A stretch of 64,000 nt of DNA, from NCBI GenBank assembly GCA_963833985.1, contig CAWIAD010000002.1, forward strand, positions 2,496,001-2,560,000, given 5' to 3'. Shown one piece after another: positions 16,636-52,927 of this stretch (position 1 is its first letter; every line of letters begins with the position of its first letter). A model generated the notes under the pieces. The model worked only from the letters and a program-made list of their open reading frames with translations. It was not told where the DNA came from and searched no databases. The position numbers and the translations under genes were made by a program. The stretch comes from an uncultured Planctomycetaceae bacterium. GTDB lineage: Bacteria > Planctomycetota > Planctomycetia > Isosphaerales > Isosphaeraceae.

Positions 16636-17988
16636 GGCGAGCGGCAGGTCTTAGTTTCCCTGCTGCTCGGTGATTCTCGGTTTGATAGTGATGTCATACT
16701 TCGGCAGGGTCGCCGATCTTTCCAATCGAGCTTCGTACTGCTTCATCTCCTTGGCGGCGACTCGAACGCCATCGGGATACTCGCCGTGGAGGCGTTTCAC
16801 GATCGGGTGCCGGCGCTTCCAGGTCATTCGTAGGGCGCATTGCAGGACCACCTTCAGGCAGTTCAGTAACACGCCGTTCCATTTCTTCTCCAGGGCCGAC
16901 CAGCAGCGTTCAATCGGGTTGTATTTGCTGTGGTAGGGGGGATAGTACACCAACCGAATCTCCAACCCCGACCAGTCGGCAAACTGGACCATCCGTTTCA
17001 GGAACTGGGTCCGCCGACCGGAGTTCTTGGGGCCGTTGTCCAGATAGATCACCAGGCGCTTGACATGCCCGAAGCCTGACCGGACCTGCAGCCACCACAT
17101 GCGGAGCGCATCGGCCCAAGCGTCGCTGGTCTCGCGCGATCCGAACAGGAGCATCAATACCCCGGTCACCCGCATCACGATGCCGAAAGGGACCAGCTTC
17201 TCCTTGGCTGGCGGATCGTGATCCCATCCCTTGGCCACTTGACCGTCGGCGGCGGTCCTGGTTTTTCCCCCCACGAGCGTAATCGCCCAATCCCACCTTC
17301 GCCTTGGTGTCCATGGAGATCTCCAGCGCCTCAGGATCGTCCCGAGCCTGTTGCTGCACCTCCTTCACGTTGGCGAAGATCGCGTCGGTCTCCTTGGTCT
17401 TCTTCAGCGGCCTGCCCTTCTGAATCCGCTTGAGGCGGAAGTTCATGCGGTTGAGGATGTCCCGCATGGTGCGCTCGCTGGGCAACGCGTCTCGGGGATA
17501 GCCCTTGTCAATCAAGGCTCCTCGCACCTCCGCCGCCGACAGGTTCATGTACCGTCGCGACGACTTCAGTTCCGGATCGGCGTAGGTATGGGGCTCGACG
17601 ATCGCACGGATGTCCGCAGCCAGTTGCGGGTCCTTCTCTTCGCTGCGCAGCCGACCTCTCGCGACGAAATTCTCGAGACAGCGTATCCCTTGACGGGCCT
17701 CGTGCAGTCCTTTCAGGACCGTTTCTCGTCCCCAGCCGAAGCGTCGTTCAGCTTGGCGGGCGCTGCCTTCACAGAGTTCCGTGGCCACCTCGGCCATGAA
17801 CAATCGGCGCTGGTATCCGGTCAGCCGTCTGGCTCCCGAACAGATCAAGGCGTCGAGGCACTCAGTGGATCCTTCCATGACGGTTCCCCTCCCTGGTGTA
17901 CAGACGGCAACAGGCCAGGCTCTAGCCTTGCATCATCTCACAGAACGGGGAAGCTCAATTCCGGGTAGATCTCGACGTGCCGGTCGCC
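16636..17988 (-). mobile_element. ISAzo13-family insertion sequence, copy 1 (1353 bp)
   Basis: Imperfect IRs GGCGAGCGGCAGGTC / GGCGACCGGCACGTC; 3-bp TSD TTA (16633-35, 17989-91); matches 44875..46227. Confidence 0.93.
16651..17878 (-). CDS. ISAzo13-family DDE transposase encoded in two frames
   Basis: ISMDTKAKV, YLDNGPKNSGRRTQF, YYPPYHSKYNPIERCW; frame change at the G6A5 run (17262..17272). Confidence 0.9.
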
Positions 17989-19814: not shown

Positions 19815-22283
19815 TCACGGCAGCGGGTTCAGTGGGTCAAGGGGCGCTCGGAAGTGAAACGGAACAGCTTGTCGTGCAGAATGGCGGCGTAGTCGCGCGA
19901 GCTGGTTGCGGGGCGAGAGGCGCAGCGCGGTCGTCGCCTCGGCCAGCGCCCCCCTCAGCGTTCGTTCGATCACGGGGTAATCCAGGACCTGCCAGCCGTT
20001 CTTGGCTTCCTGTTCGAGCGCCGTGCACAGGATGAGGTGAAACCAGGGCTCGTTGGCGTCCCTTCTTGCCAGGGTCCTGGCGAAGGCCGACAGCCATGCG
20101 GCGGTGTGGCGTGCGTTGTCCAGGCGCTTTTCCCGCCGTTGCGCCGCGGCCCGACTCGCCATCATGCAGGCCAGCTTATAGCCAGCGATGGGTACCACGG
20201 AATGATTCAGCCCCAGTGATTCGCAGTTCGATTCCAGTGCCCGGATGACCGCGTCGGCCCGGGCACCTGGTGCCGCGCTTCCGTTCTCTCGGCCCGCCGC
20301 TTCCATCGAGATTGCGCTTGGGTAGACCAGTTCAGCAATCCAGCAGCCGAGATGCTCACTGGCCGGCGCAGGAACATCCTCATCGGCCGGGAACCTGCGG
20401 ATCGCTGCCCGGATCATCGCGAACGAGCGCTCATCGGCCGCCAGGTCCAACCTCGCAACCGCCGCGATGAGCCCGATCAAGGGGGCGCATGCGCCATCCT
20501 TGCCCGGGCTCTCGAGCATGCGAATGTTCGTTTCCAGCAACTTTCGCCGCTGATCCTCCAGTCCGCGGGCACCCAGCCGAGTGGCGATCGATCGTCGCAA
20601 TGAACCGAGTAACAGGATGGTCTCCAGCCGTCGCGGGTCCTGAACCAGGCTTGCCAGAACTTCGCCGGCACATTCGGTCCGGGCGAGCGCCGCGTCAAAC
20701 CGGCCCTGAACAAGGTCGCACTGGCCCAGGTTCAGCAGGGCGCGACTGTACGCTTCGTCGACATCCGGGTCGTGCACGGTTTTTCTTCGCTCCTCCAGGA
20801 TCTCCAGGCTGTCCTCGAGCAGTGCGCGCGCCTCGGAGAACCCCCCGCGCGACAAAAAGGCGATCGCCAGCTTGCTCTCGAGGTCACAGATCGCGACGAC
20901 GTTGGAGGTGGCGAACTGTCGATCCTGGCGTGGCCTGAGAGTCAGCTCGCGGACAACGTGGGAGGCCTCGCCAAGGCGTTCGGACATGAGCATCCGAGGT
21001 GTATCGACGGTCGCTGTGATGAGATCGACGAGATCGTGCACTGCGCTAAAGGCGGCCTTGTCGCTCTCGATCGCATAAGCCAGGGCGGTCTCGGCACGCG
21101 CGCGGTCAGCCTCGGAAAGCCGCCAGAGAGCAAGCAATCCGACAAGGCTTGACGCCACGGTGAACGCGAGCAAGCCCAGCAGCGAGGCGAATGCAGGGCG
21201 TCGCCGGCACCATCTCAGTACGTGGTCCAGAGTCGAGGCGGGACGTGCCCGGATCGGAAACCCATCAAGCCAGCGCTCGATGTCGTCAGCCAGCGCGCCG
21301 GCGGAAGCGTATCGCCGTTGCGGGTCCTTCCGCAGGGCAGTCGCGGCAATGGTTTCCAGATCGCGCGGCAGCCCCGGGACCAGCGCTTGCGCGGGGGCGG
21401 GCTCGCGTGTACGAACCAGGTCGAGCGTCTCGATCACCGATGCGGCCTGGAACGGAGGACGCCCCGTCAACAGGGCGTACAGGGTTGCCCCCAGGGCAAA
21501 GACGTCGGCAGGCGGCCCGATCCCGCCAGGACCGCCGACAATCTGCTCCGGCGCCATGTACGAGGGTGTGCCCCGCGGTTCGGCGGGACCGTTCGCGGTT
21601 GCGACCGGGTCGTCGCCCACCCAGGCAATTCCGAAGTCTGCGAGCATCGGCGTGACCCGGTCCCAACCCTCCTCGGGGAGGCCGTCGAGCAAGATGTTTG
21701 AAGGCTTGATGTCAAGATGCAACGTCCCGGCGTAGTGGATCTGCTCGACGGCCCGAGCGACCTGCACCATCAACCCGGCCGCGACGCGCGCCGGTAAGGG
21801 GCCGTTCACGCGCTCCGCAAGACTTCCCCCGGCGATCAGATCGAGCACAAGATAAAGGCAGCCGTCCCGTTCGCCCGCTTCGTGAATCTGGACCACGTTG
21901 GGATGGCGAACTCGCCCGATTGCCCGCGCCTCGCGAAGCCAGCGCCTGCGATCCTCCGCACCGATGCCGATACTCGCCCGAACCACCTTGATGGCCACAC
22001 GGTGCGCCAGGCGCGGCTGCCACGCCTGATAGACGACGCCCATGGCGCCGCGCCCCAGCTCGCGTTCGATCACGAAGCCGGGGAACGCAAGGGGGTCCAA
22101 CGGCGTGACAACGGTTGCGGGGCCCGGTTCCTCGCCATGGGACAAAGAAACCGCCAGCCGTTCCAGGATCTCCTGGCAACTCGCGCACTCCTGGACGTGA
22201 GACTCCATCGCCGCGAATCCGCAGCCGCTCGATGGGTGACACGCGACATGGCTGAGCGTCTCGGGACTGGGACATGGCGACAT
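19815..22283 (-). CDS. Serine/threonine protein kinase with N-terminal H-x3-C-x2-C motif, TM and TPR-like C-terminus
   Basis: LGRGAMGVVY, VAIK, HLDIKPSNILL, DFG, GTPSYMAPEQ, DVFALG. Confidence 0.92.
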   Translation of the reverse strand: MSPCPSPETLSHVACHPSSGCGFAAMESHVQECASCQEILERLAVSLSHGEEPGPATVVTPLDPLAFPGFVIERELGRGAMGVVYQAWQPRLAHRVAIKVVRASIGIGAEDRRRWLREARAIGRVRHPNVVQIHEAGERDGCLYLVLDLIAGGSLAERVNGPLPARVAAGLMVQVARAVEQIHYAGTLHLDIKPSNILLDGLPEEGWDRVTPMLADFGIAWVGDDPVATANGPAEPRGTPSYMAPEQIVGGPGGIGPPADVFALGATLYALLTGRPPFQAASVIETLDLVRTREPAPAQALVPGLPRDLETIAATALRKDPQRRYASAGALADDIERWLDGFPIRARPASTLDHVLRWCRRRPAFASLLGLLAFTVASSLVGLLALWRLSEADRARAETALAYAIESDKAAFSAVHDLVDLITATVDTPRMLMSERLGEASHVVRELTLRPRQDRQFATSNVVAICDLESKLAIAFLSRGGFSEARALLEDSLEILEERRKTVHDPDVDEAYSRALLNLGQCDLVQGRFDAALARTECAGEVLASLVQDPRRLETILLLGSLRRSIATRLGARGLEDQRRKLLETNIRMLESPGKDGACAPLIGLIAAVARLDLAADERSFAMIRAAIRRFPADEDVPAPASEHLGCWIAELVYPSAISMEAAGRENGSAAPGARADAVIRALESNCESLGLNHSVVPIAGYKLACMMASRAAAQRREKRLDNARHTAAWLSAFARTLARRDANEPWFHLILCTALEQEAKNGWQVLDYPVIERTLRGALAEATTALRLSPRNQLARLRRHSARQAVPFHFRAPLDPLNPLP

Positions 22284-22790
22284 GGGGCAATCTCGCACCC
22301 GCCTGGGAACCTGGTCAATTCTCGACTCGTCGGACTTCCGGCTCGCCCTGCGATTCGGTCAGGATCCGCTGGCTCTCATCGCGCAGCATGCGGCTCACTC
22401 GCTTCTCGGCTGCAAAATCGGCGTAGTACGAGATGCCGGCATCCTCCGCGCTCTCTCAGACCGACTTCCCTTCGATGGCAATGTTCCAGAACACCTGCCA
22501 CGTCCGTTCGTGCACGCGGCCTCGCACGGTGTTCTGAACCTTCTCGGCCTCGCGGAGCAGGCTTGTCTGCTCGCGAGCCACGCTCTCCTCGACCTAGAAC
22601 GTCATGGAAGGGGCCTCCACAAGCACTGCCCCTGGCTGATCCTCCAGAGAGGCAACAGGATTGGCTTTCTGCTTCCGCAGCAGGTCGATGGCCCGCGATT
22701 GACACAGCCGTCAGAGCCATCCGCGAAACGTCTTTCCCGGATCGTAGCGGTAGGTTCGCATGCGTCGCGCGACCTCGATCCAGACCCGCT

Positions 22791-23100
22791 GGTGATAAGG
22801 TAAGGTGATAAGAAGGTGATAAGGGGCCACCCACACTTCTAGGTGATAAGAAGGTGATAAGGGGCCACCCACACTTCTGGCCTCCTACTGGACAAACGGC
22901 TCCGACTTGGATACGTTTGTTCATTATGAGATGGGCCAGGTCGAAGTCGACCGCAGGAGGATAAGAGCAGGAGGATAACAAGGATAAGCAAGGATAAGCA
23001 CAGGATAAGGGCCACCCACACTTCCTTCAGGTACTGGACAAACGGTGCCGGATTAGGTACGTTTGATCATCACTAGGCGGACCAGGTCGATGTCGGACCG
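22791..23100 (+). repeat. Left-end stuttered array of HUH-Y1 element 1 (nested prefixes, core GCCACCCACAC x3)
   Basis: Units start at (A)AGGTGATAAG or CA(G/A)GATAA and stop at variable points; core at 22826, 22864, 23011. Confidence 0.9.
23035..23063 (+). promoter_or_regulatory. Putative sigma70 promoter of HUH-Y1 gene 1 (diverged second copy at 22889..22917)
   Basis: TGGACA-N17-TACGTT; both hexamers are conserved in the two leader copies while the spacer varies. Confidence 0.55.
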
Positions 23101-23135
23101 GCCACCGATCGTCAGTCGATCAGGAGCACACCAGC

Positions 23136-24504
23136 ATGGCACGGCGGAATCGTGCGGAAATCGTCGTCGCGGATGAGATGGGGGTCTACCACTGTGTGCA
23201 GCGGGTCGTACGCAGGGCGTTTCTCTGCGGGGTCGATCCGCTCTCAGGCAAGTCCTACGATCATCGCAGGGCATGGATCCGGGACCGCCTCGAGTCGCTC
23301 GCGGGGCTCTTCGGCGTGGAGATCGCCGCCTTTGCGGTGATGTCCAACCATCTTCATGTGATGCTCCGCATCCGTCCTGATGTGGTCATGCTCTGGCCCG
23401 ATCACGAGGTCGCCAGGCGCTGGCTGGTCCTCTTCCCCGGCCGGGTGGAGACCACGCCGGATCCCTCCACAATCCCGACCGCCATGGCCTGGCCGGTCGA
23501 ACAGCACGGTCCAAGCCAGGCACCCGGCACCACGGCCTTGCCCTCCAGCGGAGCATTCACCGACCCGCTGGAACAGGCGGTCGCCATCCTCACCGCGGAT
23601 CCTTCGCTGATGGCAACGATCCGCGGCCGACTCTCCAGTCTCTCATGGTTCATGCGTGCCCTGGCCGAGCCGATCGCCCGCCGGGCCAACCGCGAGGACC
23701 GCTGCACCGGCCGCTTCTGGGAGGGCCGGTTCAAGTCGCAACGGCTGCTGGACGAGGCGGCCTTGCTGGCGTGCAGCATCTACGTCGATCTGAACCCGAT
23801 TCGCGCCGGGCTGTCTGATCGACCGGAGACCAGCGAGTTGACTTCCGCCCACGAGCGGATCATGGCCCTGCTCCAGGATGTCCCAGCCCACTGTGCACCC
23901 AGCGCATCACGTCTTGACGTCAGTCCTGTGGCAGTGGCACGGCCGAACGAGGCTCTGTCGTCTGCGGCGGAACAGGATACGCAAGTGCTTGTGGGAGAAC
24001 CCCCTGTGGCGTCACCGGCTGCGGAAACCGTCCGCCGGGCCCGACCGCACGAACACGAACGCGAGCAGGCTCACATGACGCTCCGCGATGGCTGGCTCAG
24101 CCCGATCGAGCTGGATGCAGCGCTCCGAACCGCTGACCACAGCCATGGCAGAACCGCGAGCGGCCGCGGCCGAGACGCCGGGCGAGCCGACGCGAGCGCG
24201 GCGGGCCAGCAATCGCGGGCTGCTGCCGATGACGCTGGAGAACTACCTCGATTTGCTGGACTGGACGGGTCGACAATTGCGAACCGGGAGCCTTGGCGTG
24301 ATACCCGCGGGGCTGGCGTCGCTTCTCGATCGGCTGCAAATCTGCGCCGGGACATGGCTGGAGACAGTGACGCGGTTCGGCCGCCGGTTCCACCGCGCGG
24401 TGGGGCTGGCAGACCACCTGAAGGCGGAAGCTCAGCGGCTGGGCGTGACCTGGCTGCACGGCGTCCGCTGGAGCCAGCAAGCGTTCGCACCACCCGGTTC
24501 GTGA
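23136..24504 (+). CDS. HUH Y1 nuclease/transposase, RAYT (TnpA-REP)-like long form; frameshift near 24115
   Basis: YHCVQRVVRRAFLCG, FAVMSNHLHV (HUH), LSWFMR, FWEGRFKSQRLLDE, YVDLNPIRAG (catalytic Tyr); C-terminal YLDLLDWTGR in ORF 24088..24504; AGGAG RBS. Confidence 0.88.
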
Positions 24505-24725
24505 GCCCGTGGGTCCCCGCCTCGTTTCGAGCGATCGCGGCAAGTCTGGTAGGCCAGGTCTGATCGAGGCCGTGTGACCATCGCGGTCCTCGATTCGCGA
24601 ATTCGGCACCGATGGCCAGTGCTCCGTCGCGTGGAAGGATTGTCCACGCCCGCGCAGCGAGCCTCCGCACGTTTTTGCTCCTCCAAGTTCGGGTCTGGGA
24701 TGTCGGGACGCGCCGGGAGTGACTC

Positions 24726-25197
24726 ACCGCCGCGGCGCGAGCATCCTGCAGAATGTGGGTGGCACCAATCAGACACTTGCAGAATGTGGGTGGCACCAAT
24801 CAGACACCAATCAGACACTCCAATCAGACACTGCACCAATCAGACACCACCAATCAGACACCCCAATCAGACACCAATCAGACAGCACCAATCAGACACC
24901 GCCGCGGCGCGAGCATCCTGCAGAATGTGGGTGGCACCTAACTTGCTGTGCAGAACGTGTTGCAGAACGTGGGTGGGACTTAACTTGTTGCTTAACTTGT
25001 TGCAGAACGTGGGTGGCACTTAACTTGCACTAACTTCTGCAGAACGTGTTGCAGAACGTGGGTGGCACTTAACTTGTTGCTTAACTTGTTGCAGAACGTG
25101 GGTGGCACTTAACTTGCACTCAGAACGTGGGTGGCACTTAACTTGCTTGGGTGGCACTTAACTTGCTTAACTTGCACTTAACTTGTATTTTAACTTC
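24726..25197 (-). repeat. Right-end stuttered array of HUH-Y1 element 1 (nested suffixes, core TGGGTGG x9)
   Basis: 9x CAATCAGAC then 13x TAACTT; units share a near-fixed right end and variable left start; core is the reverse complement of the left-end core. Confidence 0.92.
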
Positions 25198-25620
25198 CTC
25201 GCGGGACCGCGAAGGGTCGGGCCGGGAAGAGTGCGAAGAAGCGGCAGAAAGGGCAGTAAATTGCGGCTCGTGGTTGCGTGGTGCCCAGGGCCTTTGCGGC
25301 TGCTCCGGATGACCATGCGGAGAAGCGCATTCGCGCGGCGGACTCGCGTCAGGGGCGGCGTGCGCGGTTGCCGGTACACTTCAGGTGACGAGGTGCCGCC
25401 CGGCACCAGGCGGCGTTGACACGAGTCAGAGTTGCGGATAGATTCCCGGCGCACGTCGCGGCTGTGGGGCGGCGATCGGTCTGATACCCATACCTGATCC
25501 TCCATCAGCGAACCTGTTCGCACCGTACCGTGGCTCATCGGTCGAGGCGCGTGCTCGGGCAGTCCCAGGGACGGAGACGCATTCCGGCACGTGTCGCTCT
25601 TTGACGGGCGAGGGTTACTC

Positions 25621-26784
25621 ATGGATGATGTCCCCGCCGGTCCGGCGAGCTTGGAGCCGCGGAGGCCACTGCTTTCGGTCGTCGTTCCTGTCCGCGATGG
25701 GGGTGCCGACTTCGAGCACTGCCTCCGCCGGCTTCGCCACTCGACCTGGACGGATTTTGAACTGATCGTGATTGATGACGGGTCGACTGACGGCTCGAGC
25801 GCCGTGGCCAGGCGCCTGGGTGCCCTCGTTGTGTGCAACGACCGCCCGCTGGGGCCCGCGGCCGCACGGAACCACGGAGCCCAGCTTGCCACCGCGCCCT
25901 TGATCTTCTTTCTGGACGCCGACGTGGCAGTGCACGCTGATACCCTGGCCCGCGGCATGGCCCGGTTTCTTGCAGATCCGGGACTTACCGCGCTATTCGG
26001 CTCCTACGACAACCAGCCGTCGGCCCGCGGCCTGGTCAGCCAGTTTCGCAACCTGCTCCATCACTTCGTGCATCAGCAAGGTCACTTCCAGGACGGCACT
26101 CGCCCCGCACACACCTTCTGGACCGGCTGCGGGATGATCCGCCGCCAGGTCTTTCTCGATTTTGGCGGCTTTGATCCTCGGCTCTACCCCCGCCCGGCGA
26201 TCGAGGATATCGAGCTGGGTTACCGCCTCACCCGCGCGGGCCACCGCATCGTGCTGGCGCGCGACGTCCTGGCCACTCATATGAAGCGCTGGACCCTTTT
26301 CGAGATGGTCCGCACCGACATCTTCCGCCGGGGTGTCCCGTGGATGCTGTTGATCAGGCGAAGCGGCACGATCGAGACCGATCTGAACGTCAAGCCCGCC
26401 CAGCGAATGTGCGTGGCCATCACGGGGCTGATCTGGTTGGCTCTCGTGATCTGCCCCTGGAACGTCTGGGCTGCCCCGGTCGCACTGGGGGGGTCGGGGA
26501 TGATCGTCTGTTTGAACCGGGACTTTTACTGGTTCCTCACCCAGCGCCGGGGACTGGCGTTCGCCGTCCAGGCCCTGCCCATGCATCTGGTCTACTACAG
26601 TTGTTGCGCGGTCTCCGTGTTCCTTGCGCTGCTGCAATGGCACGTGGTCCATCCGATAACGCTCAAGAGCGCAGCCGTCGGCCCGCGCCGGGATCGCGTG
26701 GACCGGGGCGTGAAGCCAATCCCCGAGCCGTTTCTGGCTCGCGTCGCACGGAGGCTGGCACGATGGACAGCACGATCAAAGTAG
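25621..26784 (+). CDS. Glycosyltransferase family 2 with C-terminal TM helices
   Basis: SVVVPVRD, IVIDDGSTD, AARNHG, FLDAD, GGFD, IEDIELGYRL. Confidence 0.92.
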   Translation: MDDVPAGPASLEPRRPLLSVVVPVRDGGADFEHCLRRLRHSTWTDFELIVIDDGSTDGSSAVARRLGALVVCNDRPLGPAAARNHGAQLATAPLIFFLDADVAVHADTLARGMARFLADPGLTALFGSYDNQPSARGLVSQFRNLLHHFVHQQGHFQDGTRPAHTFWTGCGMIRRQVFLDFGGFDPRLYPRPAIEDIELGYRLTRAGHRIVLARDVLATHMKRWTLFEMVRTDIFRRGVPWMLLIRRSGTIETDLNVKPAQRMCVAITGLIWLALVICPWNVWAAPVALGGSGMIVCLNRDFYWFLTQRRGLAFAVQALPMHLVYYSCCAVSVFLALLQWHVVHPITLKSAAVGPRRDRVDRGVKPIPEPFLARVARRLARWTARSK

Positions 26785-51548: not shown

Positions 51549-51781
51549 CCAGGTCCCAAGGTCCAAGGTCACCAAGGTCCAAGGTCAAAAAAAGGACAAG
51601 GTCAAAAAAAAGGACAAGGTCAAAAAAAGGACATGCAATGCAGTTTTCCCCTGGTCGGATGAGGGTCAAAAAGAGGTCAAAAAAAGGAAAGAGGTCAAAA
51701 AAAGGACATGCAATGCAGTTTTCCCCTAAAAAAAGAAAGAAAAAGAAAGGACATGCAATGCAGTTTTCCCCTGGTCGGATG
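51549..51781 (+). repeat. Left-end stuttered array of HUH-Y1 element 2
   Basis: Units start at about (C/A)A(A/G)GGTC and stop variably; core AAAGGACATGCAATGCAGTTTTCCCCT at 51626, 51701, 51746. Confidence 0.9.
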
Positions 51782-51821
51782 GATCTGGTAAGCTGTGCGG
51801 ATCTTGCCAGGAGAATCGAAC

Positions 51822-52858
51822 ATGACGATCGCGCAGTGCGCATCTGGTGGATCCGTCGGTTACCCGCTGGTATCACTGCATCACGCGGTGCGTGCGGCGG
51901 GCGTTCCTGCTGGGGGAGGGCGGTCTCGACCGCAAGGAATGGATCGAACGGCGAGTCCAGGAACTTGCGGAGATCTTCTCGATCGCCGTGGGCGGGTTCG
52001 CCGTCCTCGATAATCACTTACATCTGCTGGTGCGGCTCGACCCGGATGTGGCGGCGGGGTGGGCAGATGAGGAGGTTGTGCGGCGCTGGGGGAGGCTCTT
52101 CCCACCGCGCGACAAGGCACGAAAGGCACTGCCGGTCTCGGACTCGTGGGTCAAGGAACGGCTGAAGGACGTGAAGTGGGTTGCGATGGCACGCCAGCGG
52201 CTGCAAAGCCTGAGCTGGTTCATGAAGTGCCTGAAGGAGCCGCTGTCGCGACTGGCGAACCGCGAGGAGAACACCCGCGGGGCGTTCTTCGAGGGGCGGT
52301 TCCAGAGCGTCGCCATCCTGGACGAGGAATCATTGCTGGCGACCTGCGCTTACATCGATCTGAACCCGGTGGCGGCGGGGATCGCCCAGGTTCCGGAGGC
52401 CAGCCCGCACACGTCCATCAAGCAGCGGGTCGAGCATGTGCAGGAACAGGAGCGCCGCCGAGGATCTGAAGGCCGCGAAGCAAGGCAGCATGGCGGGGTC
52501 GAAGGCGGCGAGTGGGATGGAGGAGCAGCTCTGGCTCTGCCCGATCGAGGACCGCCGGCGGCTCGACTCGATGCGGGAAGGTATGCTCGAGGGGTTCAGC
52601 CTGGGGAACTACCTGCTCCTGGTGGACTACACCGGGCGGGTGTTTCGCGAAGGGAAGGCGATGATCTCGGCGGAGCTGGCCGGGATATTGGAGCGGCTGG
52701 GAAGCAACGCCGAGAACTGGCAGGCACGGCTGCTGAAGCTGGCGGGCGGGCGGCTGCTGGGGAGGTTCTTCGCCGCCAGCCGGGAACGTCTGCGGGATGT
52801 GGCCGGTCGGCTGGGCCGGCATCACCTGGCGAACCTGGGCGGCTGCCCGGCACGGTGA
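51822..52858 (+). CDS. HUH Y1 nuclease/transposase, RAYT-like; frameshifts near 51835 and 52450
   Basis: AGGAG RBS + ATG; WYHCITRCVRRAFLLG, FAVLDNHLHL (HUH), LSWFMK, FFEGRFQSVAILDE, YIDLNP; C-terminal YLLLVDYTGR. Confidence 0.88.
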
Positions 52859-52927
52859 GCCGGGCGAGATGCGCGGCGTGTTGGTCTCAGGTGCTGGTCG
52901 GCCTCACGGCCGAGGTTGGGGGCTGCA

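Follow-up and report, generated by a model that had tools for sequence, protein, structure and literature searches.

HUH enzymes leave a 5'-phosphotyrosine and a free 3'-OH. In the IS200/IS605 family (IS608, ISDra2), the ends carry subterminal hairpins on one strand, cut sites are selected by guides and the catalytic motif is YxxxQ. The multiplication of repeats by RAYT and TIRYT enzymes has been a standing question since about 2010–2013. For TnpA_REP of E. coli, amplification of BIMEs was modelled as a nick, synthesis primed by the 3'-OH and an attack on the Tyr-5'P that adds a unit (Ton-Hoang et al. 2012, PMC3333891, Fig. 7B). According to the text of the same paper, this E. coli REPtron features GTAG hairpin REPs, cleavage between C and T, a second cleavage and whole BIME units, and does not transpose as a unit. 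The 5'-phosphotyrosine of TnpA_REP was resolved in vitro by the 3'-OH of an added oligonucleotide (PMC8266576).

TIRtrons were described by Di Nocera, De Gregorio and Rocco (2013, PMC3733652) as genes of RAYT-like tyrosine transposases (TIRYTs) with flanking inverted repeats unrelated to GTAG REPs, and their TIR repeats are also found remote from the gene, singly, as dimers or in clusters; the locus analysed here is alike in both respects. One-side-anchored truncated arrays, a boundary outside the TIR and a cut site are not described in the text of that paper. Twenty of 26 TIRtron examples belong to subclass 2.1 with an HTH domain and none to subclass 2.3, as given in the text of Quentin et al. 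(2018, 10.1101/279083). Our literature search, mostly of the running text of open-access papers, found neither anchored arrays nor a boundary outside a TIR described; the name TIRYT occurred in two distinct papers and TIRtron in one. The word 'tandem' does not occur in the text examined of Bertels 2017 (PMC5581495) or of the Bertels and Rainey preprint (10.1101/2021.07.10.451892), and no cut site of a TIRYT or subclass 2.3 enzyme is reported in the portions of the literature examined.

The window (the whole stretch of 64,000 nt that was analysed) features on its forward strand a long RAYT-like HUH/Y1 transposase gene at 23136..24504, in which one extra base near 24118 causes a frameshift. An intact copy in the genome of the window (G000:C2:551448-552815) encodes 455 aa and is 99.5% identical to the window copy. 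The protein contains H72-x-H74 and Y216-x-x-x-N-P, and all 71 homologues aligned carry H72, H74, Y216, N220 and P221 without exception. HUH together with a catalytic Tyr in YxxxNP places it in class 2 of TnpA_Y1 (RAYT-like). The match to Pfam Y1_Tnp was weak (E 0.003) and below the cut-off. NCBIfam NF047646 (REP-associated tyrosine transposase) scored 40.8 bits (E 1.8e-10), which is below the curated cut-off of 80 bits; a long insertion splits the domain. Among 48,161 chains compared, the predicted structure (mean pLDDT 73.8) best matched TnpA_REP 4ER8 (Z 11.0, rmsd 3.1, 160 aligned), also ranked first by Foldseek (E 0.014). In the model, beta1 is followed by a predicted additional loop, helices are added between the HUH motif and the Tyr, and the C-terminal domain is helical; for the C-terminal tail, the single-sequence model was poor (pTM 0.39) and all Atlas matches were under 0.9, so that no DNA-binding fold was assigned to it. 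Sequence searches of the PDB gave one spurious match for the single protein and none for the profile. No HTH or Bac_DnaA_C Pfam family was detected in the 71 members at E 0.05 (one weak CecR_C match was obtained), and Rfam gave no match over 22000-26000. Homologues from Alteromonadales were found at 42–47% identity. Judged from sequence and model, the protein fits subclass 2.3 of Quentin et al. (2018) by length, putative insertions, YxxxNP and Alteromonadales homologues; that subclass is likewise described as long, with YxxxNP, beta1/alphaA and beta3/alphaC insertions, a long C-terminal tail and multiple copies (10.1101/279083). Elsewhere in the window, 51550-52860 holds a second Y1 gene of a ~355-aa family, apparently frameshifted and with its own anchored left array around GGACATGCAA, and 16651-17878 an insertion-sequence-like transposase in two frames.

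The locus is a mobile element, in which the long HUH/Y1 transposase gene lies between two inverted end motifs. The innermost left motif (GGGCCACCCACACTTC) is located at 23008..23024 on the plus strand and the innermost right motif, inverted relative to it, at 24747..24766 on the minus strand. Counting in the window confirmed the initial annotation's tally of inverted cores, with the left core GCCACCCAC present three times (22826, 22864 and 23011) and the right core TGGGTGG nine times (24756-25148). Both ends share the inverted core GCCA(C/T)CCA, which is common to Planctomycetota homologues and some Gammaproteobacterial ones. All offsets refer to the G of GCCA and are counted along the inward-reading strand.

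On the left (plus strand), an outer array at 22791..22850 is composed of prefix units that begin 11–13 nt before the core, one of them containing a core (22826). It is followed by a prefix copy of the left end of ~100 nt (22851..22954, core at 22864) and by an inner stutter of five GGATAA units (22955..23008); GTGATAAG is the other short left unit and also occurs five times. The prefix units start at 22791, 22802, 22813, 22841 and 22851, corresponding to −11 to −13, and end at −2, −3, +14, −3 and about +90. The ~100-nt unit is 78% identical to the inner end over 64 nt, indicating an older event. On the right (minus strand), the array has two phases that differ in their outer sequence. The inner phase (about 24764..24899) has CAATCAGACAC on the plus strand and nine units (CAATCAGACA), and the outer phase (about 24900..25197) has TAACTTG on the plus strand, 13 units (TAACTT) and seven cores, and includes an 89-bp higher-order duplication. 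The right units mirror the left ones when read on the bottom strand: neighbouring cores match outwards over 10–13 nt in six of eight cases and inwards over a variable 0–39 nt. The nested, one-side-anchored units that had been claimed are therefore present as prefixes on the left and as their mirror image on the right, but the claim has to be qualified for the two right phases and a few off-rule pieces. These are a single T at 22801, AATAC near 25185 and a ACGTTCTGC piece, which starts inside the end and is present twice through the 89-bp duplication.

The array boundary coincides with the end of the element, since host junctions and the limit of sequence shared between copies fall there. Upstream of the element, a remnant host gene, which we take to encode an ECF-type sigma factor, occupies 22315..22792 on the minus strand. 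Translation and comparison with orthologues revealed three internal stops and the loss of its ~57 first codons, which were not found in G000 at high identity. Uninterrupted orthologues (L212-L214) match the window up to 22792 and then diverge, which puts the left junction at −11 to −9 with a 2-nt GG overlap. Where single units join known paralogous DNA, the junctions among those listed fall at −10, −11, −12, −13, −13 and −15. Of 78 ends with a near-identical partner, 74 share 14 nt or less outwards; for outward identity of this family within G000, 24 of 45 values reached the 100-nt maximum through an unrelated multi-copy repeat and segmental duplicates. A fixed target-site duplication was not found at 57 two-ended loci, where direct repeats were no longer than in mismatched pairs. 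Five of these loci have longer direct repeats, of which only that at L008 abuts both junctions, the others being diverged or not abutting. At L008 (G021:C1), a 114-bp flank duplication with 99% identity abuts both element ends. At G000:C2:3954876-3955993, a left end is joined to the middle of its own transposase gene at −13, which amounts to a prefix duplication several hundred bases long.

The two near-identical copies in G000 occupy different sites, with a host gene truncated at the left end of each; the gene interrupted by the second copy is presumably Uma2-like. In G021, many copies of the gene were found, in which the outer 10–11 nt are common before divergence sets in. The gene is thus multi-copy and moves with its ends. 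The window copy and the second copy have in common the exact inner left stutter, the left unit of ~100 nt and the outer sequences AAGGTGATAAG and AATCAGACAC; they differ in the outer arrays of both sides. On the left, 22791..22850 is unlike its counterpart; on the right, the inner phase has an outer sequence common to both copies with differing units, and the outer phase occurs in the window copy only. Within the right array of the second copy lies a DDE_5 insertion sequence, accompanied by a direct repeat of 4 bp (CTAA). These differences and the internal insertion indicate that the arrays are layered, that they were altered after the two copies diverged and that they predate an insertion event. 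Four bases within the repeated units of the second copy are tentatively host-derived, the orthologues being about 72–74% identical.

For the survey of homologous loci, 220 of 222 gene matches were kept. The analysis, with redundant loci retained, covered upstream flanks (152, each 300 nt or longer) and downstream flanks (142, each 500 nt or longer); 172 ends had GCCACCCA on the inward strand, compared to 6 that had it on the outward strand. De-duplication left 221 ends with a core and 56 further ends without a recognisable one. Conservation around the core extends from about −8 to +13, and the consensus of the wider clade is GTGCCA(C/T)CCA. In agreement with the initial annotation, the ends are not hairpins: no conserved hairpin was detected over the 221 ends (median folding z −0.2 to −0.3). 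Repeat units were parsed at 81 of the 221 ends and none at 140. Of the 229 parsed units, 101 start at −10 to −13, and the unit ends reach +139 with peaks near −1 to +2 and +13 to +15; these unit counts are inflated by higher-order duplications, and loci that are related do not count as independent samples. The near-fixed 5' boundary 10–13 nt outside the inverted core and the variable 3' ends are hence seen in the homologues as well as in the window.

A strict test considered only perfect tandem duplications of at least 7 nt at the innermost core. Anchored starts at −16 to −8 were obtained for 25 of 221 ends and none for 196, while 21 events start further out and four at −7 to +60. On the opposite strand, two of 221 ends qualified, and six shuffled motifs gave two among 450 control sites in the same genome, so that the pattern of nested anchored flanks extends to the homologues. 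Sixteen of the 25 anchored duplications are 14 nt or shorter, and 19 of 25 unit starts are purines, a weak preference. Arrays are a minority state of the ends, yet strongly polarised. Six Gammaproteobacterial loci inspected by eye have the core at both ends (three), at one end (two) or unclear (one), and at least four of the six have prefix-type duplications. In G004, arrays comprise 46 and 29 cores. An 11-nt outer unit is repeated perfectly in tandem more than 20 times at the right end of L124 (G021:C19). Anchored arrays are a real, statistically clear and phylum-crossing feature of a named element class.

Other Y1 families of G000, for which 23 matches to NF047646 were obtained, show duplications that start at the same distance. 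In the ~355-aa family (core GGACA(T/G)GCA), anchored duplications occur at 29 of 56 sites, and all 25 anchored duplications end between −6 and +7. For the ~240-aa family, whose core is GTGTCAGTT, the corresponding count is 27 of 105 sites. Two RAYT-like genes of the latter family (L245 and L246, G000:C2:3098441-3100100 and 2426965-2428420) have large two-sided anchored arrays around GTGTCAGTT and are cleaner examples than the window element. Gene-less doublets and MITE-like units carrying the core of the window element also stutter in G000, from which it follows that arrays track the motif and not the gene. Such MITE-like units and ~40-bp inverted core doublets with stutters outside are located at G000:C2:1452758-1452890, 5882116-5882340, 489000-509100 and 2584830-2585980, and likely form a non-autonomous family. 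An unrelated repeat containing GGGCCACCCA is present in many copies in G000, none of which stutters.

A motif-blind scan of G000 yielded 67 irregular arrays. Fifteen lie within 1.5 kb of a Y1 gene, a zone that makes up 1.1% of the genome, and 52 do not; one of three short core patterns is present in 41, in some of them by chance. The 25 arrays with neither a nearby Y1 gene nor a core pattern include CRISPR arrays and GTAG-type REP clusters. Among the hits of the scan are two CRISPR-like arrays (G000:C1:682053-689400 and 1212557-1217300). GTAG-type REP clusters beside GGCAGT or TCAGGCGA stutters were noted at G000:C1:1826847, 2324640 and 2608808 and at C2:156162 and 4022979; hairpin REP systems may leave similar scars.

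On balance, the arrays are probably scars of repeated nicking, extension and rejoining by the element's own enzyme, which is the leading explanation. The enzyme would bind the motif and nick the inward-reading strand at a roughly fixed distance outside it (about −11), becoming linked through Tyr216 to the 5' end. A host polymerase would then extend the free 3'-OH by n bases into the element, displacing the Tyr-linked strand, before the new 3'-OH attacks the phosphotyrosine and duplicates the first n bases. Such a cycle would leave a duplicated prefix whose start is fixed and whose end varies, and would also generate units too short for a core. Joining of the Tyr-linked end to a trimmed or distant 3'-OH could yield one-sided deletions, long flank duplications and new insertions. 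Each end would act on its own, and imprecision in the measured distance would allow host bases to enter the outer 10 nt gradually, giving each locus its own repeat. The frameshifted window copy would rely on an intact copy in trans. We infer the nick site, its strand and the nature of the substrate (dsDNA or ssDNA) from the arrays. The initial annotation had envisaged the joining of free, truncated end copies; since many units end short of the core, local re-copying is the better explanation for the units. Simple tandem prefix copying accounts poorly for the internal ACGTTCTGC piece, for the outermost GAAGGATAAG units of the second copy, which are without TG, and for the change of outer sequence between the right phases.

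Polarity and blunt junctions would be no different if the enzyme cut both at the fixed boundary and at inner sites of variable position and released single-stranded fragments or circles that are pasted back at the boundary, which resembles the BIME excision model. Such excision and reinsertion could account for units seemingly borrowed from another core, e.g. GAAGGATAAG in the second copy, and TnpA_REP cleaves at several sites and recombines in vitro (PMC3333891). However, many units of 7–15 nt stop before or inside the core and are too short to circularise or be recognised, and units nearly always copy the adjacent inner end, local mutations included; we regard this route as unlikely. Replication slippage at a roadblock would proceed without a nick: a motif-bound transposase or other protein stalls replication, and the nascent strand slips back or switches template. 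That arrays follow the motif even without a gene nearby suits this scenario, as do the clustering of unit ends at the outer edge of the core and near +13 to +15 (the edge of the conserved block) and the microhomology of 2–5 nt at some junctions. Pooled over 61 anchored junctions, however, microhomologies of 0, 1, 2, 3, 4 and 5 nt numbered 33, 16, 9, 2, 0 and 1. This is close to simulated blunt joins (0.56, 0.28, 0.11 and 0.03 for 0–3 nt), which argues against slippage. The same boundary also joins host DNA and ends the identity between transposed copies, so that strand transfer is needed, and many copies of the unrelated GGGCCACCCA-containing repeat lack a stutter. Slippage is accordingly quite unlikely in our judgement.

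An ordinary REP/BIME cluster, i.e. hairpin REPs multiplied by a domesticated RAYT, is brought to mind by the RAYT-like protein, by the ~40-bp inverted core doublets of the genome, which resemble REPINs, and by one left unit that can fold an 8-bp stem. Given that a GTAG tag and a conserved hairpin are absent, that the gene is multi-copy and mobile with its ends, and that the units are one-side-anchored truncations instead of whole repeats, we consider this very improbable. A sequencing or assembly artefact is hardly credible. The one raw-read run matched 6% of sampled words and covered only 23070-23364, not the arrays; the same architecture is nevertheless found in many independent assemblies, including G004 (three contigs, 99% complete) and the complete replicon of an isolate (NZ_CP074588). 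Moreover, the two copies in one genome differ in their outer arrays but have an identical inner stutter, and the array of the second copy contains the DDE_5 insertion sequence with its CTAA direct repeat.

If the nick-extend-rejoin reading is true, the arrays are natural products of the nick-prime-rejoin model of 2012. They predict a nick on the inward-reading strand 10–13 nt outside the core, no requirement for a hairpin and the need for a polymerase. Deletions and rearrangements in Planctomycetota and marine Gammaproteobacteria would then have an active source in a class of 'transposase' genes common in these groups, and a distance-measuring HUH nickase-ligase could serve as a tool. More tentatively, enzymes of subclass 2.3 and related TIRYTs might represent a distinct and widespread mode of HUH transposition, which we rate as less likely than not. 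This mode would be characterised by inverted motifs, a nick at a measured distance and 5'-phosphotyrosine ends that each act as an independent donor to almost any 3'-OH. One reaction could then account for the spread of the element, MITE-like derivatives, one-sided deletions, flank duplications and arrays that log past activity in order.

Compared to IS200/IS605 elements, the element shares Y1 HUH chemistry and the lack of a fixed target duplication. It differs in its inverted mirror-image ends, which imply opposite strands, and in YxxxNP, and assignment to this family was rejected since both the YxxxQ motif and subterminal hairpins are absent. With REPtrons, it has in common the fold (PDB 4ER8) and the nick-prime-attack scheme, and the mechanism proposed here would be the model of Fig. 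7B without the second cleavage (PMC3333891). In contrast to REPtrons, a hairpin is absent, the boundary is apparently defined by distance, units range from 7 to over 100 nt and the gene moves. Assignment to REPtrons was rejected, as the arrays contain no GTAG-tagged stem, no conserved hairpin was found over the 221 ends, and the single-copy, non-mobile gene of a REPtron is at odds with two 99.5%-identical copies in G000 and many in G021. In the text of Quentin et al. (2018, 10.1101/279083), neither REP-like flanks nor a TIR are given for subclass 2.3, whereas a conserved inverted core and anchored arrays were found here. The GGGGWSAS motif of some TIRs (text of PMC3733652) is missed by one base, GGGGCCAC having C at W. 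The initial annotation was aware of no named system that fits, which could not be upheld as stated: inverted-repeat-flanked Y1 genes are TIRtrons (PMC3733652), and nick-prime-rejoin was already proposed for BIMEs (PMC3333891). Taken together, with an inverted core at both ends that is unrelated to GTAG REPs, the architecture is that of a TIRtron, the closest known kind of element.
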